From an uncultured Candidatus Poseidoniales archaeon (GTDB lineage Archaea; Thermoplasmatota; Poseidoniia; Poseidoniales; Poseidoniaceae), in assembly GCA_964526385.1 (NCBI GenBank), contig CAZGJD010000003.1:55225-119224 (forward strand): a DNA stretch of 64,000 nucleotides, given 5' to 3'. The position numbers and the translations under genes were made by a program. Below, piece after piece: positions 22,174 to 46,102 of this stretch. The notes beneath the pieces are model-generated. The model was not told the DNA's origin and did not search any database. It saw nothing but the letters and a program-made list of their open reading frames with translations. The number at the start of each line of letters is the position of its first letter. Positions within the stretch are counted from its first letter, which is position 1.

Positions 22174-23463
22174 TCAACAGGTTGGTAGTCTTGACTGTGA
22201 CGGTTTGATTACCTCTCTCGCTACATGCTCACATTCATCTCTGACATCTTCTGGAATGAAAATCAGAGCAAGTTCAGATGAGAGGACTAGACTTTGAATT
22301 AAAGGAGAATGTTCGACAACATCTCTGCCATCTTCCAAAATTATGCCTTGGCTATATGGCTTGTATCCCTTCTTTCTAATACTCGAAATAATTATTTCTT
22401 CTTCGCTATATCCTGAATTTTTCACAATTGGTTTGATTTTCTCAATTACAATAGAACTCATTTCTTCGGTCAAATCTGAAATTCTTATCGATTTATGGTA
22501 ATCTTTCCGTGAGACGAGCTTGTCGGCATATTTAGCTAATTCATCATCATTTGATTCAGACCAATCCATCAATACTGAGTTGATATCTGCATCAGTCAAT
22601 TTTACGTAATCTTTGACAGATAATTCATCATTACATAACATATTCCATAGCGAATTTGTGAGTTTTAATTTTCCATCGATTGCGAGTTTTCTCGCTCTGG
22701 ACAATACACGTATCAGGTATTCTTGTGTTAACTGATTCACCTTGTGAAAATAAACCTGATTGTACATGTGATATCTTGTTACCAAATAGGCCTCAATTGC
22801 AGGAAGACCCCACTTTTTTGCATATAATCGTCCATCCTCGTTGACCCTTAGTGCTCTAATTACTCGAGATGAGTCAAAACCACCTATTTGAGCGCCAGTA
22901 TTTGCCTGGTCCCTAATCATGTAGTCCATCCGATCAACATCTAATTGACTACTGATTATTTCTTTTAGGAATGGAGGGATTTCTTGGCCATTACACTCAG
23001 ATTTTCCCGAATACAAAGCGAACAATCTTTCTGTCCTGTCATCCCCCAAAATTTCTCTCAAAGCCTTACCGATATCTGTTTCTGTGGACTCAAGTATCTT
23101 TTTTCCCCAATCCTCATGAGAATGAAATGTTGCAAATACCTTATCCGACTCCAATAAATGTGAAAATGGTGGATGACCAATATCGTGAAGTAAGGCGCCG
23201 ATAGATACTAATTCCGCATCTTCATTAGAAATTATGCCGGGTTGAACTTCGGATAAGTGCTCGCATAATTTCACAGCTAAATGGTATGCACCTAGACTGT
23301 GAGAGAACCGGTTGTGAGTTGCTGCTGGAAATACATAATGACAAGTAGCTAACTGCTGTATATTTCTCAATCTTTGGAATTCCTTGGTATCTATCAGTTT
23401 AGAGATGTGACTTGGAATGAGGATGTCGCGATGGATTTCATCTCTAATCACCCTGTCCCTCAT
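22174..23463 (-). CDS. HD-domain phosphohydrolase, SAMHD1/dGTPase-like dNTP triphosphohydrolase family (COG1078)
   Basis: HD motifs HNRFSHSLGAYHLAVKL and ALLHDIGHPPFSHLLE. Length about 430 aa. The N-terminal MRDRVIRDEIHRDI resembles COG1078 starts. The track start at 23490 is TTG; the ATG at 23463 is preferred. Confidence 0.7.
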   Translation of the reverse strand: MRDRVIRDEIHRDILIPSHISKLIDTKEFQRLRNIQQLATCHYVFPAATHNRFSHSLGAYHLAVKLCEHLSEVQPGIISNEDAELVSIGALLHDIGHPPFSHLLESDKVFATFHSHEDWGKKILESTETDIGKALREILGDDRTERLFALYSGKSECNGQEIPPFLKEIISSQLDVDRMDYMIRDQANTGAQIGGFDSSRVIRALRVNEDGRLYAKKWGLPAIEAYLVTRYHMYNQVYFHKVNQLTQEYLIRVLSRARKLAIDGKLKLTNSLWNMLCNDELSVKDYVKLTDADINSVLMDWSESNDDELAKYADKLVSRKDYHKSIRISDLTEEMSSIVIEKIKPIVKNSGYSEEEIIISSIRKKGYKPYSQGIILEDGRDVVEHSPLIQSLVLSSELALIFIPEDVRDECEHVAREVIKPSQSRLPTC

Positions 23464-23538
23464 GGACTTCCGTTTCGTCTCTAATATCAAGTCCTTTCCC
23501 TACCAAAGTGATATTGATTTAGAGGATTTGGAGGTGGC

Positions 23539-25350
23539 ATGAGCGAAGCCACTGGGCCGAAGGATACGGCCGAGGAGAGCATTACTAAAACAGACCAAAC
23601 ACAAATGGATATTGACAGTGTTTTCAACAAATATGACGAAAATTCTGATGGTAAAATCCAGCATAGTGAGTATGTAGAAGTTCACGGTTCCGGCACTGGT
23701 GGAGGAGTTTCTGGCATTCTTGACCGACTGCTTGATGACAGTCCGGAACTCCGAGGGCAGAGGCTTTGGGTGATGTTTTCGATATCAATTGTATTAGTAG
23801 CAGCCCTAAATGCATATGCAATGGTCCGTGAACCTGAACTGGTTGCCATTGAGGACTTAGTTCAACATTCAAATGAAGTAGTATCCATTAAAGGAAGTGT
23901 AGTTTCTTGGGTTGAAGACCCTTATTCATCTGGAGAAGATAGAGTGAATATTTTGGTCGAAGACTCAACCGGAGTCGCTCAATTAAGGTGGTATAATTTT
24001 GCTGAAATTCCGATGCTTGGAACAGAAATAAAAGTAACGGGTGACGTGATTGTTTACAATGGTAAAATATGGATACAAGCCATCGGAAGTGGAGCTGTAT
24101 CTTGGGATGAAGCCGATGTTCCAGAAGCGCCTGAACTCACAATTTCAGCAATTGCAAAGGCGCCGGAGGATTATATGGGTGATACGGTAACCGTTTCCGG
24201 ATACATTTCGAAACCTGTTAATCCTGATTCTACTTTCACATCACTCACTTTGAGGGACCACCCCTCCTATGGTATGCAAGAATATCAAATGAACATGATT
24301 ATTCATTCAGCACCCGGCCAATGGTTAGAATCCGGACAAAAAGTTGAGGTCACCGCAACATTAGATTACTCAGAAAAATATCTTCAGTGGTCAATGCATG
24401 TTCAAGGTCCTGAAATCAGAGTTGTTCGAACTCATGAACCGGTTCCGACAAAAATTGGTTGGTCTAATTATCAAACATGGTCATACAATTCTGGTGCTTT
24501 GATTATTATTGAGGGGATGATTGATGATGATGAAATAATAGAGCCAAATGGAGATCTAAGAGCATGTTTATTGAATACTCCTGACCTTACTGATTATCAA
24601 GGAGAAGTTGTGACTTATGGTGGAAGACTTGTTTGGTCCACATCCTATGCCGGTTGGTGCGTAGATTCTACCAGTTCATCATCTATTCAACTCCTTGACA
24701 TAACGGATGCTGAAAACATCCTAGGATATCTTTCAATGAATCCAAAATCAACTTTTGACGAGGTTGAAAATAGTACTAGGTACCTGATTTCAGGTGTAGT
24801 TTCTGGCTCATACTTAATGAGCGAAAATGGAGATACAAAAATATCCATTGCTGATGCTGTGTATCCTAACACACTCACGAAAATGGATGCCTATGTCCCA
24901 GTTGGACAACATTCAGGATGGCTAGAAGACGGACAAGAAATAGTTGCAAATGTTTCAATTTCTTGGAATAGTAACTCTAACGAATTCCAACTTATTGTAT
25001 ATGATTTGGTGCTAACTGGAGATACTCCAGAACCCAATCCATATGATTTAGCAGATGGTGCTCCACAATTTTATGACCTGAATAAGATAACTAGTATCGT
25101 AGGTAATGTTGTCGAAATTGATGGTGCAACATACCTGCAAAAAGAAGGCGGTGAGCAAAAAATTGTGATTGATATAGACCCAACGTCTATTGGATTGAAT
25201 TCATATCACGAAGGTCTGACATTGAAGTGGATTGGTCGATTGATTGAAATGCCGGATGATGTAACTCTATCCCACTATTACGTGCTTAGTGATGCGGATG
25301 TAGTGGACATGGACGGCAATGGGATTGCCGACGACGCTGAAGATTTGTGA
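23539..25350 (+). CDS. single-pass membrane protein with an N-terminal cytoplasmic EF-hand Ca-binding loop and a large extracytoplasmic beta-rich domain
   Basis: A canonical EF-hand loop DENSDGKIQHSE has D1, N3, D5, G6, I8 and E12 all in place. TM helix LWVMFSISIVLVAALNAYAMV. About 500 aa extracellular. An SD-like GGAGGTGGC precedes the ATG. Confidence 0.5.
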   Translation: MSEATGPKDTAEESITKTDQTQMDIDSVFNKYDENSDGKIQHSEYVEVHGSGTGGGVSGILDRLLDDSPELRGQRLWVMFSISIVLVAALNAYAMVREPELVAIEDLVQHSNEVVSIKGSVVSWVEDPYSSGEDRVNILVEDSTGVAQLRWYNFAEIPMLGTEIKVTGDVIVYNGKIWIQAIGSGAVSWDEADVPEAPELTISAIAKAPEDYMGDTVTVSGYISKPVNPDSTFTSLTLRDHPSYGMQEYQMNMIIHSAPGQWLESGQKVEVTATLDYSEKYLQWSMHVQGPEIRVVRTHEPVPTKIGWSNYQTWSYNSGALIIIEGMIDDDEIIEPNGDLRACLLNTPDLTDYQGEVVTYGGRLVWSTSYAGWCVDSTSSSSIQLLDITDAENILGYLSMNPKSTFDEVENSTRYLISGVVSGSYLMSENGDTKISIADAVYPNTLTKMDAYVPVGQHSGWLEDGQEIVANVSISWNSNSNEFQLIVYDLVLTGDTPEPNPYDLADGAPQFYDLNKITSIVGNVVEIDGATYLQKEGGEQKIVIDIDPTSIGLNSYHEGLTLKWIGRLIEMPDDVTLSHYYVLSDADVVDMDGNGIADDAEDL

Positions 25351-26861
25351 GAGTGTTTGTTATGGATGCCTTTTTCGCTGAAATGGGATGGATGCTTTTT
25401 GCACTATTCCTCGGCGTATGCATTGGCTCTCTTACTGGTTTAATTCCAGGTTTCCACGTAAACAACGTAGCATTAATCCTTCTTGGAATATCACCTGCCC
25501 TACTCGCAATAGGAATCCCACTTTCGGCCGCAGCGGGAATCATCGTTTCAACAGGAATAGTCCACACATTCTTGAACTACATACCCTCTGCATTGATTGG
25601 AGCGCCCGGCGCAGATACAGCACTGTCGCTACTACCCGGCCATAGGATGCTATTATCTGGTAATGCTCCTCGAGGTGTTGCATATTCAGCTAGGGGTAGC
25701 CAACTTGGATTATTCCTGTCACTACCACTTATCGTTGCTGCAAGAATAGCCTTTGGACCTGAACTTGGTTTTTACGACCATCTGCGTAGTGCTCTTCCAT
25801 TCGTTTTATTGTCGATTTCAATTCTACTTATTGCAACAGAAACCACCAGACTAGATTTTCCGGATTGGATTCAAAAAGCATCAGGTGGTAAGTTAGGTAA
25901 TGATTCTAGATTTGCAGGATACATTGCTGCCACATCTTTCTTCCTTCTTACTGGATTGTATGGCTGGGGAATCTTCAACCTTCCAGTAACCTCACCAGTT
26001 GGAATGCCAGGCGCAGGATTACTACTTCCAGCACTAGGCGGATTATTTGGTATTGCAAATTTGCTTGACATTTACGCTACGACTTCTGAAATACCGCCTC
26101 AAAAGGAAGATTGGGAGCTGCCTGCTTCTGGGCCACTAGTGGTTCCATGTTTCCTATCTTCTTGCGCTGGTGCTGCAATGGGTGTTCTACCGGGGATGAC
26201 TGCTGCTCAAGCGACTGTTTTAGTTATGGGAGGACGAAATGTCGCTGCTAAAATTCAGGGTAAAGAAGGATATGGTCTTGATTGGGAGACTAGAAAACTC
26301 ACGGAAATGACCGATGAAGAATTACTTGCTTTGGCAAGAGCGGAAGCCGCAGGAGAAGGGGAGAGCCCTCACACTAAGCAAGACCTCGAAATTATTGCCC
26401 TGTTGTCTGCCACTAACACCGCTGTTACGGTTATGGTACTCGGATTCCTGTACATCATAGGAAGGTCAAGGTCAGGAGCAACTCTCGCTTTGAAGCAAAT
26501 GTACCCAATTGATACGTGGAGTGGACTACACCCCACAACCGATTTTATCAGGCTAATAGCAATTACAATCGCGGCAGGAATCATCGCAGTTCCACTCATG
26601 AAACACGTAGGCAAAGGTATTTTGCAACTTCATGAAGCGGTACCGCTACAGTCAATGGTCCTTGGCGTGGTTATTTTCATTGTAGTATTGGTCTGGCTCT
26701 CGTGTGGTTGGGTTGGCATGATTGTCTTAATCGTTGGAACAATACTTGGGCTAATCCCCCCAAGAATCGGGATTAGGCGTTCTCATGCTATGGGTATAAT
26801 CATCGTACCAATCATGATCTACACCTTTGCTCAAAAATACGATGCATTTGGATTCCTTTGA
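25347..26861 (+). CDS. polytopic membrane protein, TctA-family (DUF112) candidate transporter
   Basis: About 16 predicted TM helices. The N-terminal pattern GSLTGLIPGFHV...GAPGADTALSLLPGHRMLLSGNAPRGVAYSARGSQLG resembles the TctA GxLxGxLPGIG...NLPGEAASAVTCLDGYPLARQGRAGxALG signature. GTG start overlaps the upstream stop (GTGA); the first ATG is at 25362. Confidence 0.5.
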   Translation: MRVFVMDAFFAEMGWMLFALFLGVCIGSLTGLIPGFHVNNVALILLGISPALLAIGIPLSAAAGIIVSTGIVHTFLNYIPSALIGAPGADTALSLLPGHRMLLSGNAPRGVAYSARGSQLGLFLSLPLIVAARIAFGPELGFYDHLRSALPFVLLSISILLIATETTRLDFPDWIQKASGGKLGNDSRFAGYIAATSFFLLTGLYGWGIFNLPVTSPVGMPGAGLLLPALGGLFGIANLLDIYATTSEIPPQKEDWELPASGPLVVPCFLSSCAGAAMGVLPGMTAAQATVLVMGGRNVAAKIQGKEGYGLDWETRKLTEMTDEELLALARAEAAGEGESPHTKQDLEIIALLSATNTAVTVMVLGFLYIIGRSRSGATLALKQMYPIDTWSGLHPTTDFIRLIAITIAAGIIAVPLMKHVGKGILQLHEAVPLQSMVLGVVIFIVVLVWLSCGWVGMIVLIVGTILGLIPPRIGIRRSHAMGIIIVPIMIYTFAQKYDAFGFL

Positions 26862-26917: not shown

Positions 26918-27970
26918 TCATGATTTATTCTTTGAAATAATCTCATCATGTAATTTCAGATTCAGCAAAACTTCTCCGAAATCTCTTGCATATGCGCACA
27001 ATCTTCTAACAGATTCGGATAGTCTGAATAACAAAAGGTCATGCTTTGTCATCTTTCTACCTTCAATTAATTCATCTTCGTATTGGCTAATTTGAATTTG
27101 GGCCTTTTTCAATTCATGACGTGCTTCTTCGATTTCAAATGAGTTTCTGGTTCTGATGTTTATCATTAATTTCTTGATTGCTTCTTGCCATACTATTAGC
27201 TGAGTTATTGGAGATTTTCCCCTATCTAATTTTACATTATTTGCTGTTGTTATCAACTTAGCCATGTGGGTAGCATGGTCCATCATTCTCTCCAATGAAG
27301 TTGCAAGGTTAGAGTGCTCAACTGCTTGATTTCTAGCCAATTTTAGTGCTGAAGCTACTAAATGAGAATTTAGCGCAATGCTAACTTGTCTTTCTACTAG
27401 GTAAAGTAAAGCATCAACTTCTGATTCCTTATCATCCACATCATTGAGTACTTCAATTTCAAGACCATCAGATATCGAAATAATATCTCTTGTTACTGAT
27501 GTTAGTAATGAATACATTCTGTTTATGCTCGAGATTAGAGGCATTTCAGCAGCACTGATCAAACTAATCAAATCAATCCGCCGGTCTGTTTCATTCATCA
27601 TTTCAAAACCACGAGTGTTCTTCAAGAACCTTCTAATCTGTTTATGGAGCAAACGATCAATATCACTTTTGTATACGACTCTAATATTGTTTACTCCAGC
27701 AAGATAGGCGCCCATCAAATGGTCATGAAGAGATTCGTCCGGTATATTTTCTAGGTTAATTGTCACAACTTTTTCGGTATTTTGGAGAAGTTGTAATGGA
27801 GTTAATCTCAACGCACCACTGGGTCTCCAATCGATTCTAATTCCATCACGAGGTTTTAGTTTCATCTGGTCAACCCAGGTTTTTGGAAGACTAACTGTAT
27901 ATGTTGCTCCACCAGTAAGTTGCACCTTGCGGACTTCTATATCACCAGGCCCGTAATCCATTGTACTCAT
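26918..27970 (-). CDS. phosphate-uptake regulator: N-terminal AbrB/SpoVT swapped-hairpin DNA-binding domain fused to PhoU domains
   Basis: N-terminal IEVRKVQLTGGATYTVSLPKTWVDQMKLKPRDGIRIDW is typical of archaeal AbrB-PhoU regulators. The C-terminal helical PhoU-like repeats are divergent from the PiT gene. The track start at 27988 is TTG (checked); the ATG at 27970 is preferred. Confidence 0.7.
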   Translation of the reverse strand: MSTMDYGPGDIEVRKVQLTGGATYTVSLPKTWVDQMKLKPRDGIRIDWRPSGALRLTPLQLLQNTEKVVTINLENIPDESLHDHLMGAYLAGVNNIRVVYKSDIDRLLHKQIRRFLKNTRGFEMMNETDRRIDLISLISAAEMPLISSINRMYSLLTSVTRDIISISDGLEIEVLNDVDDKESEVDALLYLVERQVSIALNSHLVASALKLARNQAVEHSNLATSLERMMDHATHMAKLITTANNVKLDRGKSPITQLIVWQEAIKKLMINIRTRNSFEIEEARHELKKAQIQISQYEDELIEGRKMTKHDLLLFRLSESVRRLCAYARDFGEVLLNLKLHDEIISKNKS

Positions 27971-28043
27971 ATCTTCTAATATTGACAACTATATAGATTA
28001 CATGGGCTTTAGGTGATATACTGTTTTCTTTTGAGGAAACAAT

Positions 28044-30161
28044 ATGGAACCAGTAACAATGGTTGTTATCGGCTTGGCTTTGATTGTTTGTGCTTATATG
28101 GCATGGAACATAGGGGCAAATGATGTTGCAAACGCAATGGGAACTTCGGTTGGTTCGAAAGCACTAACGCTTAAGCAAGCGGTGATTATTGCCGCTGTTT
28201 TCGAATTCGCTGGAGCATTTTTTGCCGGTGATGCTGTCACTAAAACAGTTAGGAAGGGCATCTTAACGGTTGATTTCTCAACTGTAACTCAAGAGATTTC
28301 CCAAGATATTGCGTTTGGATTTATTGCTGCTATGATGGCGGCTGCAGTTTGGCTAACTATCGCCACAAGAATGGGTCTTCCAGTATCTACCACACACTCG
28401 ATTATCGGAGGAATAATTGGTGTTGGATTGGTATTAGAAGTCGATCACAATGCAGAATATATCGATTGGGAAGTAGTGCAAAAAGTGGTCATGAGTTGGG
28501 TCGCTAGCCCACTTATGGGTGGACTTCTCGCCTTCTTTTCTTATTGGATTATCAAAAAGACCATCCTCGACGCAGAAAATCCCGAACAAAGGTCGATGTG
28601 GTTAGCTCCTATTCTTGCATTCCCAACTTTCTTTGTTCTAGGCCTAGCACTGCAATTCAAGGCATTGAAAGGATTCTTTGCAAGAGCTGAATCAAATGGC
28701 TGGATAGAAGACAAGACTTCGTGGCTTCCCGCTAAAGAAAATGGAGTATGGGATCCATTTGCAGAGGCAGCTTGGCTCCCAATTAATTCCCTAATTCTAG
28801 CTGCAGTTATTGGCGCATTAGGTTCATTGAGCCTTTACATGGTTTTGAAGAAAATTGACATCAATGAAGAAAGCAAAGGATTCAAAGGCGTGGAGAGAAT
28901 TTTCGTATGGCTACAGATTATTACCGCAGCGTATGTGGCATTTGCACACGGAGCTAACGACCGTTCGAATGCTATTGGACCTATGGCTGCAGTTTGGCAA
29001 GTATTGTCAAATGATTCAGGCATGCTAATGGAACAAGCCGATATCCCTCTCTGGTTAGTTCTGCTTGGTTCAGCAGGTATTGCAATTGGTGTGATGACTT
29101 GGGGATGGAGAGTTATGGAGACTGTTGGAAAGAAGATTACAGAAATCACACCAACACGTGGATTCGCTGCCGAATTTGGTGCTGCAACGACAATCTTGGT
29201 TTTCTCAATGCCTTTCTTGGCAGTACCTGTTTCAACAACCCACACACTAGTTGGTGCTGTTGTCGGCGTAGGTTTAGCTGGTGGAGCAAAGGCAGTAGAT
29301 TTCAGAGTATTTGGAAAGATTGCAGCATCCTGGGTCGCAAGCGTCCCTGTAGCGGCATTCGGTGCAGCAACAATCTACATCGCTTCAGGCGGAGATAATC
29401 TCAAAATGATTATCCTGCTACCGATTGCTTTCGCAGCAGTAGGAATTGCCATGTGGAGAACACGAGGTGGGGAAATCCATGTCGAGGAAGCATTATCGGA
29501 TGCTGGAAGTTCTGAAAAAGGAGAAACACCATTTGAGTTATTCCATAAACACGCTGTTGCGGTCGAAGCAACTGTTTCCCACATGTTAGATGCGGTCAAC
29601 AAAACCGCCAGTGGTGAAGATGCAAGTGATGAAATCAAGGCTACAGTAGAAGCGGAGTTAGATGCAGACAATATCAAAACTGAACTGAGAGATATGATGC
29701 AGGATACCGACATAAGATTGATTGTTTCAATGGATGATTTCTTGAGAATGCTGTCGAGGCAGGATAGAATTGCTGACTATGCTCAGAATGTTGCTGAACA
29801 ATTGAGTTTCAGAAAATTATACGATAACAAAGAAGCAAGAGAAATGCTGGTTGAGATGGCAGAAGCTGTTTCTGCGACAGTCGCAATATACGAAGACACC
29901 GTTGAGTCTTTGAGAGACTTATCTCTTGGTGGAGAAACCAGAATTGCAAAGCGCAAGATAATGGAATTGATCAAGGAAGTCAACCTGAAGGAGCACGAAG
30001 CAGATGAAGTTGAAGCAAAGGCCGCTGCTCATGTATTTTCTACAGGCGATGATGATGCTTTGGCTGCAATGCACATGTACAGAGTTCTTCAGAGAATGGA
30101 TGACGTGGCGAATGCATGTGAAAAGGCGGCTAACGCATTAATTCCTCTATTGACCAAATAA
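28044..30161 (+). CDS. inorganic phosphate (or sulfate) permease of the PiT family fused to a C-terminal PhoU-like domain
   Basis: The PiT signature GANDVANAMGTSVGS appears near the N-terminus and the repeat GANDRSNAIGPMAA in the second half. About 10 TM helices. A C-terminal soluble helical region of about 200 aa resembles PhoU. A TATA-like CTATATAGA sits about 50 nt upstream and a GAGGA SD-like element lies just before the ATG. Confidence 0.85.
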   Translation: MEPVTMVVIGLALIVCAYMAWNIGANDVANAMGTSVGSKALTLKQAVIIAAVFEFAGAFFAGDAVTKTVRKGILTVDFSTVTQEISQDIAFGFIAAMMAAAVWLTIATRMGLPVSTTHSIIGGIIGVGLVLEVDHNAEYIDWEVVQKVVMSWVASPLMGGLLAFFSYWIIKKTILDAENPEQRSMWLAPILAFPTFFVLGLALQFKALKGFFARAESNGWIEDKTSWLPAKENGVWDPFAEAAWLPINSLILAAVIGALGSLSLYMVLKKIDINEESKGFKGVERIFVWLQIITAAYVAFAHGANDRSNAIGPMAAVWQVLSNDSGMLMEQADIPLWLVLLGSAGIAIGVMTWGWRVMETVGKKITEITPTRGFAAEFGAATTILVFSMPFLAVPVSTTHTLVGAVVGVGLAGGAKAVDFRVFGKIAASWVASVPVAAFGAATIYIASGGDNLKMIILLPIAFAAVGIAMWRTRGGEIHVEEALSDAGSSEKGETPFELFHKHAVAVEATVSHMLDAVNKTASGEDASDEIKATVEAELDADNIKTELRDMMQDTDIRLIVSMDDFLRMLSRQDRIADYAQNVAEQLSFRKLYDNKEAREMLVEMAEAVSATVAIYEDTVESLRDLSLGGETRIAKRKIMELIKEVNLKEHEADEVEAKAAAHVFSTGDDDALAAMHMYRVLQRMDDVANACEKAANALIPLLTK

Positions 30162-30255
30162 GGATGAATGCATTGATTTGATTCAGTAAGTTGTTTCTGG
30201 GTTTTATAGAAGAAAGCATCAAAACCCTACACTTATCCGACATAGTGATGCTAAT

Positions 30256-33200
30256 ATGACTGCAAGGGCTATTTCACTAATTGTCATACTCTTATTGGCA
30301 CCTGTTTCAATCTTGATTGAGCCAATAGAAGCAGGCGTTTCTGGGAGGGCATTGGCTTGCTCAGGCTCGGTATGCCTAAACGAGGCTTTACCGAATCCAA
30401 GTGGATATGATGATGCAACATGGCCTAATGGAGAATGGATGGAGATTCATAATTCAGGGTCTACAGCAATTGATATTCTAAATTGGGAACTCGAAAATAA
30501 AGCAGGAAAGATTCTACAATTCAATTCGACGACAATAGTCGGCTTTGAAAGTGGCAATTCATCGACCTGGACAATTTCACCTGGTGAGTATATGGTAATT
30601 GCAAGAAATGGATATGGTAATTTCTACTTGACAAATTCATTCGATTACATAACTATGACAGACGCATCTGGCAACTTCAAAGACCAAGCCTCTTGGAATT
30701 CAACATCGTCTGGCGTCAGCTTAGAAGAGGATTCAGCAAACTCGATGAACGATTGGATTCCAACCAACACACCAACCCCAGGATCGGCAAATAGTCAAGC
30801 AACTGGACCTGTTTACACTGGAGTATTGTTCAATGAAGTTATGGCAAACCCATTCTTTTCTGAGGATAATTCTTCATGGCCGGGCGGTGAGTGGATTGAA
30901 CTGCACAACGAAGGCACATCAGATGTAGATTTGACAGGATGGACAATCGTTGATAATGCTGGAAATAATATCCCCCTAAATGAATCACACTTAATAGGAA
31001 ATTCCAATATCATAGTAGCTGGAGGATACAGGGTTATTGCAGTCAATTCATCCAATGCATGGGGTGTTTTGAATAACGGAGCAGAAAGTTTGCGATTGAC
31101 CATTGCAAATGGTTCCACCACAGACCAAATTTCTTGGACTGATACCGTTGCTGGATTTTCATCAGAAGAACTCGCAGATGGTTCTTGGTTCGTAACTTCT
31201 TATCCATCACCCGGAACTGAAAACCCTAACCTTTGGACAAATATTGTTGACATGCAATCTGACGTTGTAATTACCGAGGTATTGGCTAATTCATCTAGAG
31301 ATGGATTCGCATATCCGGAAGGAGAATGGGTGGAATTGCACAACACAGGAAATACAGACTGGGACCTAGCTGACTGGAAAATAAGAGACGGAATGGGAAA
31401 TTTGACTCATATCAATATTGGAAATCTGGTAATGAATAATTCGCAACCAGGGACAATTATTGCAGCAGATTCTAGAAGACTCGTTCAATTTTCAGAATTG
31501 GTGACATTATGGAACCAGTATAACCATTTAATGCTGGAAGACCCTACTGGGAATGTCGTTTACAAAGCATGGTGGGATTCTGACCCTGGATTAAACAACT
31601 CTTTGATTGAGGCCCAAAATCCAGATCTTCCTTGGGTTATAGCGAGTTGGCCAACACCCGAAAATCCAGAACCAGGCACTACTTCGATTGTTGGAGATAT
31701 AGCATTCAATGAAATATTCCCCGACGCAATAGGAAACGATACCGATGTTTGGCCAAATGGTGAATGGATTGAATTGATTAACACAGGTACTCAATCAGTA
31801 GATATCGCAAATTGGTACTTTTCATCAGGTTCGAGAAATTTCAATATTAACGTAATTCAACTACCTGAAAAAGATAGTACGACAATAAACCCGGGTGAAA
31901 TTTTCGTTGTCGCCATAAATGGAACACAGAGTTTCTACCTAAAGAACACCGCACCTGATACAATTGAACTAAGGAATTCTGCAAATCAAATTGTTTCAAC
32001 AATAACTTACAACAAAACAACAGAAGGAGAATCGCTTTGGTATTGGAATAACGACTGGACTCAAGCACCTTATCCAACCCCTAATCAGCCGAACCCGCAA
32101 ACTTCTCCTTACGCTGGAGATGTTAGCATAGAAATTACCGAGGTGCTAGCCCACTGTTCTTCCGACACTATCACGCCGTTAGACGATTGGATTGAAGTCA
32201 ATAATACTGGAGGCCAAGCGATTGATTTGAATGCGTGGAGATTAATTTCTGGAGACGGTGATCTAATTCATGCAAGGTCTGACCGATTGTACAATTCAAT
32301 CAACACTCTAATCCAGCCTGCAGACAGAAAAATAATCACTGCTCCGAACTGGTTTATCAGTGGCCTCGGCGATTCAGTAACCCTCGAGGACCCTGATGGA
32401 AACGTCGTTGATTCTGTTGTTTGGACGACTGTCACTGATTGTAAAACAATGGACTCAGATGGCGAGGTATTACCTTGGCCAACGCCCGGTTATGAGGAAC
32501 CTGATATTTCCTCATACGCAGGTCCAGAAGACCTCGTTTTTAGTAGATTCATGTTCCAAGAATCAAGTGCTTCAACCAATGATGAATTCTTTGAGATAAC
32601 AAACATCGGAAATCGAACCGCCGTAATGACCGGCTGGACCGTAACAAAAACAACAACTAGTGGACAATCATTCAATGGTACATTCAATTCCTTATTCATA
32701 GATTCAGGGAATTCAGTTATCATCAGCCCAGATGCAAGTGCTGTTAAGGCAATGGAACAATCAACAATTGTTAATGCAGAGGATGTAATGGATTTCCCAG
32801 TTTGGCTTCCTGACAGTGGTTCTACAATACAATTGATTTCTCCACTTGGGGTAGTTGCTGACACTTTCGTATATGGCAACGGACCAACTGACCTTGTTGG
32901 ATGGTCCGGTCCAGCGATTAGTGAACCTGTAACAACTGTGGATAGAATTCTGTATATTCGTGGCGATGGTTGTGGAAACTTGGTTGACACAAACCAATCC
33001 GCTGATTGGGAGATTAGGTGGTCGGTTGCAGGGGCTTCACACTTCTGTGGTATTAACTCATTTTCAGACAACGCAAACGTTACGCCGTTGATTGCACCAG
33101 AAGCAGGTTTAGACAATGTTGTTTCGATGATTAATGATGCTCAACAAAGCATACACGTACACATTTACCAACTGCATCATGTTAACCTCGCTTATGCATT

Positions 33201-35013
33201 AATTCAAGCACAGACTAGAGGGGTCGAAGTGACGGTAGTTATTCACGAGCCTGAAAATTGGTGGTCTCAAAGCGAGATTTCTCAAAGTAGAGGCATAGCA
33301 TATGAATTAGAAAATTCCGGTGTAGATGTCCTGCAATTCTCATCATCTTCATCCTCACCATACCAGTACCTTCACTCCAAAGTATCAGTAGTGGACGATG
33401 AAGTCGTTTGGTTCGGTTCTGGTAATTGGAAATCTTCCAGTATGCCAGCAGATAATCGTGGCAATCGAGACTGGGGTATAATCATCGAGAGTTCTGATTT
33501 AGCGCAAATCGTCCTTGAAAGGATAACATTTGATGAAGACCCAAGCCAACTCCATGTTGAAGATTCCACATTTACACAACCCGCATCGGGTTCATATGAA
33601 TCTCCAATTGAATACGTACCAACAAACATCAAACAACCTATGCTTGAATCTGTAAATGGGGAATTGTTGACCTGTCCAGATGATTGTGTACAAGGACTTG
33701 CGGAATTGATTCAATCCGCAGAATCCGAAATCTTGCTATCCTTGCAATATTTCGAAATGGACTGGTATTGGGGTTGGCAAACAAACCCCCTCCTCGAATC
33801 CTTGGAGGATGCTGCTGAGAGAGGTATAACAATACGCATGGCAATCAATCAACACTACGTAAATGAAAATCCTGGGATAAGAGAAGCAGTGAATGAGTTA
33901 AACAGTTGGCAAGGTGATGTTGAAGCAGTCCTCATGTCTGAAAACGAAACTGTCCGAAAACTTCACAACAAAGGTATGATTATCGATGGAGAAATTGTCT
34001 TAGTTTCCAGTATCAACTGGGGTGATAACTCAATTCTAAGAAATAGGGAGATGGGAATCGCAATTGAGAACGCAAACATCGCTGCCGTTTACGAACAGTC
34101 ATTCTGGGAAGACTGGAATAGAATGGATACCTACACAGATACGGATATTGATGGAATTCCAGATTATTGGGAGCTAGAAAATGGGTTGGACAGAACCATG
34201 GATGACAGTGGGCTCGACAATGATAATGACGGAATTACTAACCATGGAGAATTTACATATGGTTCAGATCCAAACTCGAACGATAGCGATGGAGATTGTA
34301 TTCTTGATGGGGATGAGGTAATTTGGGCGTCACAAACAACAGGAGTTACAGCAAGCAATGCTCTCTTGCTTGAGGATGCAGATCTAGATGGGTTAAAGGA
34401 TAGTGAAACACTTGGTTGCAAACCTGAAATTCAAGGAGAAATCATGGATGAAGATGACGACGGAGTGGTTGATTCTGAAGATGATTGCCCCAATACTGCA
34501 ACTGGCGACCAAGTTAATTCAGATGGCTGTTCACCTGAACAGATTACTCAACCTGTAAACAATAATGATGCAGATGAGGACGGGATTCCAGATGATGAAG
34601 ATGAATGTCCGAACACACCCCCAGAAACGGCTACAGATACACAAGGATGTTCCAGTGAGCAAAATAAGGAACAATCTTCAGATGATTCCCAAGGTAGTAA
34701 TGATTCCAGTGGGTTAAACTTCATGATAGTTTTAATCGTAATTGGCACAATCATTTGTGGAGGTGCACTGTTCGTTCTATTGAGGAATCCAACACCACAG
34801 GTTGACGTTTTGGAAGGTATAGATGATGATTCTAAGTCGTATGAAATGCCAGTTTTGGACGGCACTAACGAAGTAGAAAATCAAGGAGGAATAGATATGA
34901 GTAAATTCCCAGGATGGGACACTAGTCAAGTTGAGCGTTACCTAGAATCTGGGTGGACCGAGGAACAACTATCTGAATGGTATCAGCAACAAATTGAGGA
35001 AAATTCCGCATAA
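30256..35013 (+). CDS. 1,585-aa secreted surface protein: signal peptide, at least 5 lamin-tail-domain (LTD) repeats, a phospholipase-D-family (two HKD motifs) phosphodiesterase/nuclease domain, thrombospondin-type-3-like Ca-binding repeats, and a C-terminal TM anchor
   Basis: Signal peptide MTARAISLIVILLLAPVSILIEPIEAG. LTD-like repeats EVMANP...WPGGEWIELHNEGTSDVDLTGWTIVDNAGN, EVLANS...EGEWVELHNTGNTDWDLADWKIRDGMGN and three more. HKD motifs HSKVSVVDDEVVWFGSGNW (nt ~33361-33430) and HNKGMIIDGEIVLVSSINW (~33961-34020). D-rich repeats DTDIDGIPD, DNDNDGITNHGE, DSDGDCILDGDE, DEDDDGVVDSEDDCPNT. TM helix MIVLIVIGTIICGGALFVLL. Confidence 0.75.
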   Translation: MTARAISLIVILLLAPVSILIEPIEAGVSGRALACSGSVCLNEALPNPSGYDDATWPNGEWMEIHNSGSTAIDILNWELENKAGKILQFNSTTIVGFESGNSSTWTISPGEYMVIARNGYGNFYLTNSFDYITMTDASGNFKDQASWNSTSSGVSLEEDSANSMNDWIPTNTPTPGSANSQATGPVYTGVLFNEVMANPFFSEDNSSWPGGEWIELHNEGTSDVDLTGWTIVDNAGNNIPLNESHLIGNSNIIVAGGYRVIAVNSSNAWGVLNNGAESLRLTIANGSTTDQISWTDTVAGFSSEELADGSWFVTSYPSPGTENPNLWTNIVDMQSDVVITEVLANSSRDGFAYPEGEWVELHNTGNTDWDLADWKIRDGMGNLTHINIGNLVMNNSQPGTIIAADSRRLVQFSELVTLWNQYNHLMLEDPTGNVVYKAWWDSDPGLNNSLIEAQNPDLPWVIASWPTPENPEPGTTSIVGDIAFNEIFPDAIGNDTDVWPNGEWIELINTGTQSVDIANWYFSSGSRNFNINVIQLPEKDSTTINPGEIFVVAINGTQSFYLKNTAPDTIELRNSANQIVSTITYNKTTEGESLWYWNNDWTQAPYPTPNQPNPQTSPYAGDVSIEITEVLAHCSSDTITPLDDWIEVNNTGGQAIDLNAWRLISGDGDLIHARSDRLYNSINTLIQPADRKIITAPNWFISGLGDSVTLEDPDGNVVDSVVWTTVTDCKTMDSDGEVLPWPTPGYEEPDISSYAGPEDLVFSRFMFQESSASTNDEFFEITNIGNRTAVMTGWTVTKTTTSGQSFNGTFNSLFIDSGNSVIISPDASAVKAMEQSTIVNAEDVMDFPVWLPDSGSTIQLISPLGVVADTFVYGNGPTDLVGWSGPAISEPVTTVDRILYIRGDGCGNLVDTNQSADWEIRWSVAGASHFCGINSFSDNANVTPLIAPEAGLDNVVSMINDAQQSIHVHIYQLHHVNLAYALIQAQTRGVEVTVVIHEPENWWSQSEISQSRGIAYELENSGVDVLQFSSSSSSPYQYLHSKVSVVDDEVVWFGSGNWKSSSMPADNRGNRDWGIIIESSDLAQIVLERITFDEDPSQLHVEDSTFTQPASGSYESPIEYVPTNIKQPMLESVNGELLTCPDDCVQGLAELIQSAESEILLSLQYFEMDWYWGWQTNPLLESLEDAAERGITIRMAINQHYVNENPGIREAVNELNSWQGDVEAVLMSENETVRKLHNKGMIIDGEIVLVSSINWGDNSILRNREMGIAIENANIAAVYEQSFWEDWNRMDTYTDTDIDGIPDYWELENGLDRTMDDSGLDNDNDGITNHGEFTYGSDPNSNDSDGDCILDGDEVIWASQTTGVTASNALLLEDADLDGLKDSETLGCKPEIQGEIMDEDDDGVVDSEDDCPNTATGDQVNSDGCSPEQITQPVNNNDADEDGIPDDEDECPNTPPETATDTQGCSSEQNKEQSSDDSQGSNDSSGLNFMIVLIVIGTIICGGALFVLLRNPTPQVDVLEGIDDDSKSYEMPVLDGTNEVENQGGIDMSKFPGWDTSQVERYLESGWTEEQLSEWYQQQIEENSA

Positions 35014-35051: not shown

Positions 35052-35801
35052 ATGGTGTTTAGACAAAGCAACCCCGCCCTGAATCCAAATTATTTCCGTG
35101 GAGAAATGGGCACAGAAACGATGTCAATTGAAGGAACGATTAGTAAAACCTTGACACTACTTAGCCTTGTAGGTATATCGGCATTAGTCGCATATTCTCT
35201 ATGTCTACAAAATCCCGCATACGGTGGGATGATGATAATCGGTGGCGGTGTAGGTGGATTTATACTCGCTCTCATTATCATCCTAACACGCCCATCTCAA
35301 CCACAGGTTTTGATGAGTATGTATGCCCTACTGGAAGGATTATTTGTTGGTGCATTCTCATTTATGGTTGAGCATTACTATTTGGGTGGCAGTGACGGTG
35401 TCGTTCTACAAGCATTAGCTGGAACAATCGGTGTTTTCATTACTATGCTGACTCTTTACAGAATGAGAATAATTCAGCCAACTGAGAAATTCACTTTGGC
35501 GGTTGTCTCTGTTGGTTTTGCAATCATGATGATTTACATGTTCAACTTCATGTTGAGTTTCATGGGTGCAAGCATTCCTTTCATCCACAGTAATGGTGCT
35601 ATCGGAATCGGAATTAGCGTAGTTTTTACCGGAGTTGCAGCCCTATTCCTTATCCTCGATTTCGGTGTAATCGAAAACGGAGTAAAGCACGGTGCTCCCA
35701 AAAATATGGAATGGTACGGCGCTTTTGGCTTAGTGATAACCCTTATCTGGCTTTACATTGAGATGTTGAAATTAATCGCTAAACTAAATTCTCGTGATTA
35801 A
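35052..35801 (+). CDS. 7-TM membrane protein, possibly of the Bax-inhibitor-1/YccA family
   Basis: About 249 aa with 7 predicted TM helices. The C-terminal YGAFGLVITLIWLYIEMLKLIAKL resembles the BI-1 C-terminal motif. Assignment is by overall architecture only. Confidence 0.4.
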   Translation: MVFRQSNPALNPNYFRGEMGTETMSIEGTISKTLTLLSLVGISALVAYSLCLQNPAYGGMMIIGGGVGGFILALIIILTRPSQPQVLMSMYALLEGLFVGAFSFMVEHYYLGGSDGVVLQALAGTIGVFITMLTLYRMRIIQPTEKFTLAVVSVGFAIMMIYMFNFMLSFMGASIPFIHSNGAIGIGISVVFTGVAALFLILDFGVIENGVKHGAPKNMEWYGAFGLVITLIWLYIEMLKLIAKLNSRD

Positions 35802-35802
35802 A

Positions 35803-36735
35803 ATGACAAGATCACTTACCGTTTGTAATCTATCCGATTACAGAGCTGGAGGAAAAAGACGTGACGACTTCATAAATTCTCTAGGGGAGGCTTTACAGGA
35901 CATTGGATTTTTCGCATTGACAGGCCACGGGATAAGCACTGAAGCAATACAGAAATCCTACAATGTGGCTGAGGAATTCTTCAGTCTGCCTCAAGAAACC
36001 AAATCAAAATATGAACAATCCACAATCTCAAGACAGAGGGGTTACACTCCTTTCGGTGTTGAGCATGCTAAAGATAATCCAGCGCCCGACCTGAAAGAGT
36101 TTTGGCAAACTGGAAGAACAGTTGATGACGAAAATTTCCCAAAAAATATTTGGCCAGAGGAAGCAGTTGGATTTGAGGATTCGATTGATGGACTTTACCA
36201 AGCCATGGAGTCGATGAGCCTCGAATTACTATCAGCCGCTTCTGTATTTCTCGGTAAAGATGCTAATTGGCTACCTTCCATGGCGGAAAACGGTAACACA
36301 ATTCTGCGAGTAATCCACTATCCAGCTCTAGGCGATAATGCACCAGAAGGTGCAGTAAGAAGCGCAAAACACGAAGATATCAACCTCATAACCCTCTTGG
36401 TAGGTGCTACAGCCGACGGATTACAAGTTATGGACCACGATGGGACCTGGATTGAAGTTGAAGGGAATCACGACCATATCATCGTAGATAGTGGAGACAT
36501 GTTACAAAACTTGACTAATGGATTGTTCAAATCTACAACTCATAGAGTAATAAATCCTCCAGACAATCACACAGATAGATACTCGATGCCGATGTTTGTT
36601 CATCCAAGAAACGAAATTGACCTAACTCCACTTCCAGAATTTGTCGCTCAAACGGGTGGAGAAGTGCTTTACGATTCGATTAATGCTGGAGACTATCTTC
36701 ACCAGAGACTCGTTGAGATAGGTTTGGCTTCTTAG
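35803..36735 (+). CDS. 2-oxoglutarate/Fe(II)-dependent dioxygenase (isopenicillin-N-synthase-like, DIOX_N plus 2OG-FeII_Oxy)
   Basis: HxD...H facial triad context HYPALGDNAPEGAVRSAKHEDINLITLL ... LFKSTTHRVINP with R-x-S. Track start at 35794 is GTG; the ATG at 35803 follows the upstream stop directly. Confidence 0.75.
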   Translation: MTRSLTVCNLSDYRAGGKRRDDFINSLGEALQDIGFFALTGHGISTEAIQKSYNVAEEFFSLPQETKSKYEQSTISRQRGYTPFGVEHAKDNPAPDLKEFWQTGRTVDDENFPKNIWPEEAVGFEDSIDGLYQAMESMSLELLSAASVFLGKDANWLPSMAENGNTILRVIHYPALGDNAPEGAVRSAKHEDINLITLLVGATADGLQVMDHDGTWIEVEGNHDHIIVDSGDMLQNLTNGLFKSTTHRVINPPDNHTDRYSMPMFVHPRNEIDLTPLPEFVAQTGGEVLYDSINAGDYLHQRLVEIGLAS

Positions 36736-36743
36736 GTGTGAAT

Positions 36744-37997
36744 ATGCTTTCGATGCCTTCCATAATAGAGAAGAAAAGAGATGGTATTGAACTTTCAAAT
36801 GAGGATTTCATATTTATTTGTGAAAAAATAGAAACTATTCCAAGAGAACAACTTGGCGCCTTTTTGATGGCTTGTCAAATTAATGGATTAACAAATAAAG
36901 AAACTACAAATTTGACTTTGGCTATGCTTAACTCAGGTGAAAAATTTCCAACAGAGACAAACCGTGTAGACAAGCATTCAACGGGCGGAGTAGGTGACAA
37001 GATGAGCATCATACTTGCACCCGCACTAAGAGCTTGTGGAGCAGTAGTTCCAATGTTAGCGGGAAGAGGTTTAGCACACACAGGAGGGACTATCGATAAG
37101 TTAGAATCAATCCCGGGATTCAACACGGGTCTCTTACTTGAAGAAATGGCAACAAATCCATGCTTCATTTCCAGACAAACTGAAGAGATTGCTCCAGCAG
37201 ACAAGATACTATATTCGATTCGGGATATAACGGGAACTGTACCTCAAATAGGTTTGATAACGGCTTCTATTATCTCAAAAAAAGCGGCTGAAGGGCTGGA
37301 AAATTTGGTCCTCGACGTTAAATGTGGCAAAGCCGCATTCATGAAAAACCATAATGACGCAAAAGCGCTTGCTAAATCTATGGTTGCTACCGGCAACTCT
37401 CTTGGAATGAAAGTGACTGCTCAAATCACTGAAATGAACAATCCAATTGGGAAAATGTTGGGAAATAGCCACGAAATTGTAGAGTGTATTCAATGCTTGA
37501 AAAATGAGGGACCTAATGACACGATGGAATTGGTTTATTCACAAGCCAACAGCCTAGGATACGACATCAGGGAGGTTATCAAAAATGGAAAGGCACTTGA
37601 TGAATTTAAATCAATGTGCATCCGACAAGGAGTTACACATGATACGGTTGAAAAATTGGTTTCTGATCCTTGGTCGGTTCTGAAAAGAAGCCCAATAAAA
37701 TCCGAGATTGTATCTAGCACCTCTGGTTTTTTGACCTCAATCGATGCTTATGAGGTAGGTATGATTCTTTGTGAATTAGGTGCGGGAAGGACCGGGTCCT
37801 CCCAGAAGATTAACCACGGGGTTGGGTGTAAACTCACCAAAAATATTGGAGATTTTGTTGAGCAGGGGGAAATACTGTTGGAACTTGATTCGGAATATGA
37901 AATTTCTGAGGATTTCCTCGAATCAATCCGTAGTGCCGTGATTATTTCTGATAAGGTTCCTGAAATCAAAAGCAGAATTATAGAAATTATATCCTAA
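36744..37997 (+). CDS. deoA: thymidine / pyrimidine-nucleoside phosphorylase
   Basis: N-terminus MLSMPSIIEKKRDGIELSNEDFIFI aligns with E. coli TP [25 protein letters not shown]. Signature DKHSTGGVGDKMSIILAPALRACGAVVPMLAGRGLAHTGGTIDKLESIPGF. About 418 aa, so the short TP/PyNP form rather than archaeal AMP phosphorylase. Track start at 36738 is GTG. Confidence 0.85.
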   Translation: MLSMPSIIEKKRDGIELSNEDFIFICEKIETIPREQLGAFLMACQINGLTNKETTNLTLAMLNSGEKFPTETNRVDKHSTGGVGDKMSIILAPALRACGAVVPMLAGRGLAHTGGTIDKLESIPGFNTGLLLEEMATNPCFISRQTEEIAPADKILYSIRDITGTVPQIGLITASIISKKAAEGLENLVLDVKCGKAAFMKNHNDAKALAKSMVATGNSLGMKVTAQITEMNNPIGKMLGNSHEIVECIQCLKNEGPNDTMELVYSQANSLGYDIREVIKNGKALDEFKSMCIRQGVTHDTVEKLVSDPWSVLKRSPIKSEIVSSTSGFLTSIDAYEVGMILCELGAGRTGSSQKINHGVGCKLTKNIGDFVEQGEILLELDSEYEISEDFLESIRSAVIISDKVPEIKSRIIEIIS

Positions 37998-38714: not shown

Positions 38715-38719
38715 GAAAA

Positions 38720-43820: not shown

Positions 43821-43877
43821 GTCCCTCAATCTATGCTAACCCTCTATCACATAAATTGATTTCCGACATTATGCCTA

Positions 43878-46075: not shown

Positions 46076-46102
46076 TAAATAATAGAATTTGATAATTATA
46101 AT

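Follow-up and report, generated by a model that had tools for sequence, protein, structure and literature searches.

LTD-PLD is the name used here for a gene of an uncultured Candidatus Poseidoniales archaeon that lies in a 64,000-nucleotide (nt) stretch of contig CAZGJD010000003.1 (positions 55,225 to 119,224 of the forward strand); this whole stretch is referred to below as the window. The encoded protein joins an array of lamin tail domains (LTD) to a module of the phospholipase D (PLD) superfamily with two HKD motifs. It is probably a metal-independent surface nuclease for the salvage of extracellular DNA, the assignment of the substrate resting on similarity and on genomic context, and possibly degrades RNA as well. 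By sequence, the PLD module is nearer to nucleases of the Nuc, NucT, Zucchini and PLD3/PLD4 type than to lipid PLDs or lipid synthases, and the invariance of its six HKD residues argues for a conserved catalytic function. The genes conserved around it, which encode a tandem-OB membrane protein, a TctA transporter, a BaxI protein, a thymine-hydroxylase-like oxygenase and a thymidine phosphorylase, argue for salvage of DNA and deoxynucleosides. The initial annotation of this DNA had proposed a harvest of DNA, RNA or phospholipid phosphate; the conserved neighbours point to DNA and deoxynucleosides more than to phosphate, and they lend no support to the phospholipid option.

Domain architecture and orthologues

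From its N-terminus the protein consists of a Sec-type signal peptide (probably cleaved after IEA), six LTDs, the two-HKD PLD module, a stretch resembling thrombospondin type 3 (TSP3) repeats, a C-terminal transmembrane helix and a tail of 75 residues (Table 1). The Pfam family LTD (PF00932) matches six stretches with E=1.4e-70 and 235 bits at a cut-off of 34.3. A hidden Markov model (HMM) made from three of the protein's own repeats, with which the domain boundaries were set, likewise finds six copies, the sixth being divergent and approximate in its limits. PLDc_2 (PF13091) matches two stretches (E=1e-40, 139.1 bits, cut-off 27), PLDc reaches 29.8 bits (cut-off 21.9), and the motif HxK(x)4D(x)6G(S/G)xN is present twice, at amino acids (aa) 1040-1058 and 1237-1255, with HSKVSVVDDEVVWFGSGNW at aa 1040 and HNKGMIIDGEIVLVSSINW at aa 1237.

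The initial annotation had described at least five LTD-like repeats, which were to be held against an HMM threshold, together with two complete HKD motifs and a C-terminal membrane anchor. All of this is borne out, with the repeats far above the threshold and their number now six. The signal peptide and the C-terminal helix, together with the surface-type domains found in related proteins, lend support to its picture of a surface-tethered phosphodiesterase. The Ca-binding TSP3-like repeats that it had also listed stand at the level of motifs: the stretch behind the PLD module contains 29% D+E, six DxDxDG motifs and two CPNT...GC cysteine pairs. At the level of HMM thresholds they do not, since TSP_3 (17.3 bits) and the Binary_toxB calcium-binding domain (16.8 bits) both stay under the 25-bit cut-off; one orthologue bears a precomputed PF18884 (TSP3_bac) annotation. 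This stalk may bind calcium.

In a search over 5.8 billion proteins, one protein (P0001) was 100% identical, and full-length orthologues of 1500-1690 aa with 41-78% identity numbered more than 120. Those that are named in their sources appear as 'lamin tail domain-containing protein [Candidatus Poseidoniaceae archaeon]', 'Euryarchaeota archaeon' or 'cardiolipin synthase-like'. Full-length LTD-PLD orthologues are common in Candidatus Poseidoniaceae (Marine Group II). In the 51 orthologues compared (51/51), and also in 145 family members, none of the six HKD residues varies. In a distant orthologue clade identity is 57% for LTD1 and 48-51% for the PLD halves.

The C-terminal transmembrane helix is kept in all 118 full-length orthologues. 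The tail that follows it, which is absent from the initial annotation, carries the motif FPGW...YL..GW...Q in 94 of these 118 and gave no family match in a Pfam search. In a fuller form the motif reads FPGW(x)YL..GW...Q(L)..(W/Y)Y. The tail might provide a docking site for a partner in the cytoplasm.

The catalytic module and its wider archaeal family

PLD-superfamily nucleases are metal-independent enzymes whose catalysis proceeds via a phospho-histidine. In a single-sequence search of PDB NucT was found first (2.6e-10), followed by SpPLD (7e0m), Nuc and MitoPLD. A profile of the family gave SpPLD 7e0m 89.6 bits, Nuc 74.7, mouse and human MitoPLD/Zucchini 71.9 and 67.3, and NucT 61.9. The next ranks are taken by the poxvirus nicking-joining enzyme and the PLD3/PLD4 exonucleases (43-55 bits), and lower scores belong to phosphatidylserine synthases (26-48 bits), to Streptomyces and other lipid PLDs (about 30-35 bits) and to PPK. 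In the profile alignment the motif that follows the HKD residues in the family (GNRxWG in the first half, and NRExG) aligns with NNRENV of Zucchini/MitoPLD.

For a like-for-like comparison, profiles of the N- and C-terminal halves of the family were scored on ClsA and ClsB of E. coli and on a plasmid protein of the Nuc type. The single domain of the Nuc-like protein obtained 64-77 bits, ClsB 34-40 bits per domain and ClsA 21-37. Among the 30 matches listed in a tblastn search of annotated plasmids there is no cardiolipin synthase; the proteins listed are two-HKD 'PLD-like' proteins and small single-HKD proteins of conjugative enterobacterial plasmids. When the LTD-PLD protein was scored with NCBIfam, DrmC came highest with 82.9 bits (cut-off 133), followed by the NucT models with 41-56.1 (cut-offs 211-351), the cardiolipin synthase model TIGR04265 with 40.5 (cut-off 290) and ClsB with 28.9 (cut-off 281). 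The initial annotation had considered that the HKD domain might cluster with cardiolipin synthases. The module does not: Nuc-type proteins exceed ClsA and ClsB in the half-profile test, DrmC and NucT precede the Cls models in NCBIfam, and SpPLD, Nuc, Zucchini and NucT lead the profile matches in PDB.

An AlphaFold2 (AF2) model of LTD6 and the PLD module (aa 750-1300; predicted local distance difference test, pLDDT, 90.3; predicted template-modelling score, pTM, 0.86) shows a beta-sandwich followed by a PLD fold, in which the HKD halves of a bilobal alpha/beta structure are predicted to face each other. With a threshold of E<=1e-3, Foldseek found 142 matches in PDB; the 50 best that were listed all have the PLD fold. 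The top ranks are held by the PLD3/PLD4 5'-exonucleases (E about 6e-20, TM-score on target 0.62-0.66), with SpPLD 7e0m among them, and the next by human PLD1/2 (E about 5e-18, TM-score on target about 0.45) and vaccinia F13. The model therefore describes a compact two-lobed PLD enzyme, a fold by which the substrate is not decided.

With nothing but the HKD module (aa 926-1295) as query, an exhaustive HMMER search gave 4807 cluster representatives at E<=1e-3, of which 163 reached E<=1e-30. In a Pfam domain census of 59 distant relatives, with roughly 26-35% identity in the PLD module, 46 contained an LTD; PKD, CARDB or Big domains also occur in many, and cohesin and SdrD-type domains were found beside the PLD module as well. 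Because of the frequency of the LTD and because in the family consensus the end of the LTD falls right before the start of the PLD module, the unit of an LTD and two HKD halves, to which LTD6 and the PLD module correspond here, is taken as the conserved core shared with the distant relatives, the other surface domains being variable.

The genomes of one representative per GTDB species were scanned with an alignment of 11 distant relatives, which delivered 511 encoding stretches. The 80 best of the 511 (L007-L086), ranked against a distant relative, are all archaeal. They originate mostly from Thermoplasmatota or 'Thermoplasmatales' metagenome-assembled genomes, the rest being a few records of Methanobacteriota, Euryarchaeota or unspecified archaea, ANME-1/Methanophagales and one Methanosarcinales. 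LTD + 2xHKD ectoproteins are widespread in other archaea, including Thermoplasmatota and ANME-1. The relative at L022:4834-7362, for example, possesses a signal peptide, two LTDs, the two HKD halves and a C-terminal transmembrane helix. Among the distant relatives an N-terminal hydrophobic segment is present in 89 of 118 and a transmembrane helix within the last 60 residues in 66 of 118.

In 70 of the 80 loci a rhomboid protease gene is next downstream on the same strand, for instance L054:5880-6860, L032:3832-4758 and L056:9435-10394. Gaps of typically -54 to +2 nt suggest that the two genes are translationally coupled. A gene for a presenilin-type signal-peptide peptidase follows the rhomboid gene on the opposite strand in 67 of 80 loci, and a Na/Ca exchanger gene is found in 34 of 80. 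The rhomboid may cut the C-terminal anchor and so shed the enzyme. No phosphate or nucleoside genes recur in the neighbourhoods of the distant relatives, which were mined for both.

Genomic context in Marine Group II

The window was compared with nine orthologous loci (L001-L006 and L090-L092; n=10 in all). The conserved order is a gene for a protein with HD and HD_assoc_2 on the opposite strand, a gene for a protein of 570-620 aa, TctA, LTD-PLD, BaxI, a 2-oxoglutarate (2OG)-Fe(II) oxygenase and a pyrimidine-nucleoside phosphorylase. The HD + HD_assoc_2 gene has the same position in all eight loci that reach that far (the window, L002, L003, L005, L006 and L090-L092). In loci without the phosphate genes described below, TctA is separated from LTD-PLD by 3-20 nt in five of six cases and by 141 nt in L091, and in these loci the six genes on the same strand resemble a single operon. 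In the window the last four genes, from LTD-PLD to the phosphorylase, are spaced by +38, -8 and +2 nt.

The member of the 570-620-aa group encoded in the window is a protein of 603 aa with a transmembrane segment at about aa 76-96 and an acidic N-terminus that has a weak EF-hand match. Its AF2 model (pLDDT 71 overall and 75-87 within domains, pTM 0.36) resembles a row of OB barrels: the best approximately 40 Foldseek matches (E 1e-9 to 1e-5) are tandem-OB DNA binders, namely CST, POT1, HIN-200, RPA, TEBP, Teb1 and LEF-3. A protein of like size and position, beside TctA, is encoded in 10/10 loci. Homologues are named only 'hypothetical protein', and some of them have 750-800 aa and a precomputed PF02037 annotation.

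The phosphorylase is assigned by the thymidine phosphorylase model NF004490 (405 bits, cut-off 269), with AMP phosphorylase at 161 bits against a cut-off of 535. The closest characterised match of the oxygenase in PDB is the fungal thymine dioxygenase 5c3p (E=1e-39, 140 bits); the top match, 3oox, is uncharacterised. A thymine-hydroxylase-like function is a lead from sequence similarity and not an assignment. The oxygenase and phosphorylase genes (35794-37997, +) may form an archaeal salvage pair that leads from thymidine to thymine and on to an oxidised pyrimidine. In E. coli K-12 (819000-826000, L088) clsB lies within ybhP(EEP)-clsB-ybhN, next to the two Bax1-I family genes ybhL and ybhM; this parallel with the archaeal PLD-BaxI pair may be due to chance or to a recurrent association of PLD-family with BI-1-like genes.

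In the window LTD-PLD stands directly downstream of a PiT/PhoU module, as the initial annotation had stated. Its use of this position as a link to phosphate does not hold as a conserved property of the gene. An inorganic phosphate (Pi) cassette between TctA and LTD-PLD is found in four of the ten loci, all in the subclade with 61-100% identity, and LTD-PLD has a promoter-like element of its own. The loci free of the cassette include L090 at 57% identity and all loci at 41-43%. The cassette occurs as PiT-PhoU_div in the window and L006 and as PstS plus PstCAB-PhoU in L001 and L004, two different Pi importers inserted at one site. All four loci have the same PhoU + AbrB-type gene.

An AAGAAA[G/C]CATCAA element that follows TTTATA was seen by eye to be common to the four cassette loci (window, L001, L004 and L006); its form in the window is AAGAAAGCATCAA. 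In L001 and L004 a hairpin and a T-run after pstS precede it. From sequence, this element may serve as the promoter of the LTD-PLD gene. Co-regulation of LTD-PLD by a Pho system was considered and is unsupported, as the stretch upstream of LTD-PLD has no motif in common with the Pi promoter region in the four loci compared.

The regulator gene of the cassette encodes PhoU fused to a DNA-binding domain of the AbrB/MazE type and is divergent from PiT-PhoU_div or pstS in the same four loci. The intergenic regions of this gene in the window and L006 share sequence around CTATATAGATTACATGGGCT. The PhoU-AbrB protein and the CTATATAGATTACATGGGCT region may be an archaeal repressor of a phosphate regulon and its operator.

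Compared with L004 and L006 the window has about 8.7 kb of extra DNA (38217-46879) between the thymidine phosphorylase and epimerase genes. Two Ser/Thr protein kinases (782 and 709 aa) and a PP2C-like phosphatase are encoded in this region, along with three open reading frames (ORFs) without a family match and one more ORF that is likewise unmatched. The region is probably a strain-specific island. The G+C content is 0.35-0.37 at 42-48 kb and about 0.42 elsewhere. On the reverse strand an unusually large ORF of 3219 aa (5370-15029) combines an N-terminal region of the oligosaccharyltransferase STT3/AglB (aa 406-802) with CarboxypepD_reg and prealbumin-like beta-sandwich domains, and a subtilase gene adjoins it (4058-5287, -). 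A CDP-archaeol synthase is also encoded in the window. Together with the names of the orthologues, this enzyme and the STT3/AglB-type giant mark the window as a segment of a Marine Group II (Poseidoniales) chromosome.

Table 1. Coordinates in the window of LTD-PLD, the parts of its protein and the neighbouring genes
Feature	Position (nt)	Strand	Basis and remarks
HD + HD_assoc_2 protein, deoxynucleoside triphosphate triphosphohydrolase-like	22174..23490	-	Family search; divergent neighbour
603-aa single-pass membrane protein, about five tandem OB-like beta-barrels	23539..25350	+	AF2, Foldseek, sub-threshold Pfam OB
TctA-family transporter	25347..26861	+	Pfam E=6.6e-41; 10/10 loci
PhoU + AbrB/MazE-type regulator	26918..27988	-	Pfam
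PiT (PHO4) transporter fused to PhoU_div	28044..30161	+	Pfam; directly upstream of LTD-PLD
Promoter-like element of LTD-PLD	30203..30222	+	Read from sequence; TTTATA 30203-30208, AAGAAAGCATCAA 30210-30222
LTD-PLD gene	30256..35013	+	ATG start, complete ORF, 1585 codons/1585 aa
Signal peptide, aa 1-26	30256..30333	+	Hydropathy; hydrophobic core ISLIVILLLAPVSILI
LTD1, aa 36-176	30361..30783	+	Pfam, own-repeat HMM; top conservation in distant orthologue clade
LTD2, aa 188-320	30817..31215	+	Pfam, own-repeat HMM
LTD3, aa 334-469	31255..31662	+	Own-repeat HMM, 54 bits
LTD4, aa 479-610	31690..32085	+	Pfam, own-repeat HMM
LTD5, aa 620-745	32113..32490	+	Own-repeat HMM, 38 bits
LTD6, aa 760-925	32533..33030	+	Own-repeat HMM; divergent, abuts PLD module
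PLD half 1, aa 930-1095	33043..33540	+	Pfam; HKD motif 1 H1040-K1042-D1047 (nt 33373-33429)
PLD half 2, aa 1126-1292	33631..34131	+	Pfam; HKD motif 2 H1237-K1239-D1244 (nt 33964-34020), then NRE motif
Acidic TSP3-like stalk, aa 1293-1480	34132..34695	+	6 DxDxDG motifs, 2 CPNT...GC pairs
C-terminal transmembrane anchor, aa 1487-1510	34714..34785	+	Hydropathy
Conserved 75-aa tail, predicted cytoplasmic	34786..35010	+	Orthologue comparison; motif FPGW...YL..GW...Q
BaxI_1 family 7-transmembrane protein	35052..35801	+	E=2.9e-66; 10/10 loci; starts 38 nt past LTD-PLD stop
2OG-Fe(II) oxygenase	35794..36735	+	9/10 loci, missing in L092; overlaps BaxI by 8 nt
Thymidine/pyrimidine-nucleoside phosphorylase, bacterial-type	36738..37997	+	10/10 loci; 2 nt past oxygenase

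Proposed function and alternatives

As a surface nuclease, LTD-PLD would be exported and held by its C-terminal helix as a type-I ectoenzyme, with the acidic stalk, stiffened by the calcium of seawater, keeping the PLD module at a distance from the membrane. The six LTDs would reach outward and capture polymeric DNA, possibly together with the neighbouring OB-fold membrane protein. The two HKD halves would form one active site and cleave phosphodiesters without metal via a covalent phospho-histidine intermediate on H1040 or H1237. The products would be processed and imported by other components, for which TctA and BaxI are candidates; thymidine would be split by the co-encoded phosphorylase, and thymine possibly oxidised by the T7H-like oxygenase. 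The insertion of a PiT or Pst importer with a PhoU-type regulator beside the gene in the window's subclade would fit the use of DNA as a phosphorus source.

By sequence, the closest families are Nuc (pKM101/Salmonella), NucT (Helicobacter pylori) and Zucchini/MitoPLD, with 62-77 bits per HKD half. They have in common with LTD-PLD the HxK(x)4D...GSxN motif followed by an N-R/S-E element, and Nuc and NucT are exported as well. They are small single-HKD proteins that act as homodimers, whereas LTD-PLD fuses two halves in one chain and has in addition a membrane anchor, an acidic stalk and the six LTDs. The NucT equivalog cut-offs of 211-351 bits also stand against the 56 bits of LTD-PLD. The best structural matches are the mammalian lysosomal 5'-3' exonucleases PLD3 and PLD4, which likewise unite both HKD halves in a single compact chain, cross the membrane once and have their catalytic part outside the cytoplasm. 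They act on single-stranded nucleic acid. They differ in sequence (15-18% identity), in their N-terminal (type II) rather than C-terminal anchor, in the absence of LTDs and of a TSP3-like stalk, and in being eukaryotic and lysosomal.

SpPLD of Serratia plymuthica (7e0m) is a compact two-HKD enzyme, about 390 aa long, in which a GS-type motif and nuclease-like loops are present; the authors of its structure noted these loops, asked whether it is a nuclease and left the true substrate open (PMC8004604). In contrast to LTD-PLD it is bacterial and soluble and lacks both LTDs and an anchor, and the identity in the structural alignment is about 15%. ClsA and ClsB share with LTD-PLD the two HKD motifs in one chain and, in some databases, the name given to its relatives. 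They obtain half of Nuc's per-domain profile score, their models score the protein far under the curated cut-offs, and they act on the cell's own membrane lipids, whereas the LTD-PLD module is predicted to be extracellular on a stalk.

The union of an LTD with a surface or membrane-associated nuclease is known from ExeM/Xds and from Hvo_1477 (PMC6085458, PMC3929857). ExeM of Shewanella contains an LTD, an OB-like region and an EEP domain, and deletion of the LTD lowers its in-vitro activity (PMC6085458). Hvo_1477 of Haloferax, a lipoprotein with SNase and LTD, is required for growth on extracellular DNA (PMC3929857). In Izemoplasma, a DNA-degradation locus encodes a large protein that has an LTD as well as nuclease and nucleic-acid-binding domains (PMC8289736). 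The OB-fold regions of ExeM are part of its own chain, whereas the LTD-PLD block encodes the OB-fold on a separate membrane protein. ExeM and Hvo_1477 have one LTD, compared with six in LTD-PLD, and their EEP and SNase domains are metal-dependent, unlike the PLD-type domain; neither Pfam nor NCBIfam found an EEP or SNase domain in the LTD-PLD protein. LTD-bearing extracellular nucleases and PLD-type nucleases are already known. A literature search, for which most subscription-journal papers were outside scope, gave no description of an LTD + PLD family or of the use of DNA by Marine Group II. What appears undescribed is the combination of LTD and PLD nuclease, the arm of six LTDs, the fused HKD halves on a C-terminally anchored archaeal ectoprotein and the operon with OB-fold and thymidine enzymes.

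Several observations weigh against a DNA-salvaging nuclease. The ectodomain is acidic, with 15.6% D+E and 3.6% K+R (12.9% and 3.4% in the LTDs), and the OB-fold protein is acidic too, so that DNA binding would be unfavourable unless Mg or Ca bridges the charges; this acidity is general to the secreted proteins of the window (net -0.09 to -0.12 per residue) and not to the cytoplasmic ones. The OB-fold model is of moderate confidence, and its Pfam OB matches lie under threshold. No 5'-nucleotidase, phosphatase or recognised nucleoside transporter was identified among the window genes. The Pi cassette is absent from six of the ten loci (L002, L003, L005 and L090-L092), and no 8-mer occurs in at least four of the ten regions compared (PhoU/PiT divergent and LTD-PLD upstream regions of four loci). 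The protein belongs to none of the NCBIfam equivalog families, the NucT, DrmC and Cls models all scoring it under their cut-offs, and the genes that recur beside LTD + 2xHKD in the distant relatives (rhomboid, signal-peptide peptidase and Na/Ca exchanger) are uninformative on nucleic acids. Finally, the Foldseek E-values of the lipid enzymes PLD1/2 come within about two orders of magnitude of those of PLD3/4, and for this reason the fold alone leaves a lipid substrate possible.

Such a substrate defines the first alternative, a surface phospholipase D or other lipid or glycerophosphodiester phosphodiesterase that acts on the phospholipids of particles, vesicles or other cells, with the LTDs as spacers or for adhesion. 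Head groups or phosphatidic acid would then be released for a heterotroph that is thought to eat lipids and proteins. HKD chemistry is common to true PLDs, human PLD1/2 and Moritella PLD are significant in Foldseek (E about 1e-16 to 5e-18), the top profile match in PDB, 7e0m, is deposited as a phospholipase D, and relatives are annotated as 'cardiolipin synthase-like'. Prokaryotic LTDs have been proposed to direct proteins to membranes (PMC6085458). A lipid substrate is compatible with the strongly acidic ectodomain, and clsB of E. coli is near Bax1-I family genes. In the family profile, however, Streptomyces PLD (about 30-35 bits), phosphatidylserine synthase (26-48) and ClsA/B (21-40) fall behind Nuc, Zucchini and NucT (62-77), and the compact module of about 370 aa fits PLD3/4, F13 and SpPLD (TM-score 0.61-0.71) better than the larger lipid PLDs (0.42-0.48). 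The operon partners are thymidine or thymine enzymes and an OB-fold protein, and none is catabolic for lipids or head groups. Since the PLD reaction frees no phosphate from a phospholipid, a lipid enzyme would also leave the inserted Pi cassette unexplained. On balance we consider a lipid substrate unlikely.

It is still less probable that LTD-PLD is mainly a structural or adhesive protein, whose LTD array and calcium stalk attach the cell to particles or to other cells. The PLD module would then be accessory and directed at another phosphodiester or phosphoanhydride polymer, for instance polyphosphate or teichoic-acid-like or capsular phosphodiester polymers, or at processing of the cell's own envelope. 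The PKD, CARDB, Big, cohesin and SdrD-type domains that relatives pair with the module agree with such a role, as do the conservation of LTD1 above that of the catalytic halves in the distant clade, weak PP_kinase_C_1 matches in nine of the 59 relatives, other giant surface proteins in the window, and the coupling to intramembrane proteases in distant relatives, which suggests processing of envelope or anchor. It is opposed by the strict invariance of the six HKD residues over 145 family members, by the LTD + 2xHKD core being kept while the other surface domains vary, and by the nucleoside-related operon; for an alternative polymer there is nothing positive.

A cardiolipin or other phosphatidyl-transfer synthase, or a defence nuclease like DISARM DrmC, is hardly credible and both were rejected: relatives bear COG-style names of this kind and the DrmC models score highest of the named families (82.9 bits in NCBIfam, 92.2 in PADLOC), but the protein stays below the curated cut-offs (133 bits for DrmC; 40.5 against 290 and 28.9 against 281 for the Cls models), the half-profile test disfavours Cls, the catalytic module is predicted to be extracellular between signal peptide and C-terminal anchor, where neither CDP-diacylglycerol or phosphatidylglycerol donors nor phage DNA are present, and no DISARM partner (helicase, DUF1998 protein, methylase) is found among the window genes.

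Beyond the surface nuclease itself, the whole block of tandem-OB protein, TctA, LTD-PLD, BaxI, oxygenase and phosphorylase might be a dedicated system for the capture and salvage of extracellular DNA. OB folds and LTDs would bind DNA at the cell surface, the metal-independent PLD-type nuclease would digest it, TctA, BaxI or both would have a part in import, and thymidine would be converted within the cell; the LTD + 2xHKD family of Thermoplasmatota and ANME-1 would represent unrecognised archaeal ectonucleases, with an anchor that is perhaps cut by rhomboid. This larger proposal is tentative, and we are inclined to doubt it as a whole.

If the enzyme is a nuclease, it would add a fourth catalytic fold, of the metal-independent PLD/Nuc type, to the LTD-bearing extracellular nucleases, and the 'cardiolipin synthase-like' labels on hundreds of archaeal proteins would be corrected. 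If the substrate is lipid, a well-defined family of archaeal surface phosphodiesterases would still be described, although of lower interest. Marine Group II is abundant in the surface ocean and uncultured, and its diet has been deduced mainly from genome sequences. A large pool of organic phosphorus and nitrogen exists as dissolved DNA. As a surface DNase, LTD-PLD would give Marine Group II a concrete route to that pool, and if the capture system is real, DNA would be a defined food and phosphorus source for a very abundant archaeal group of the surface ocean.

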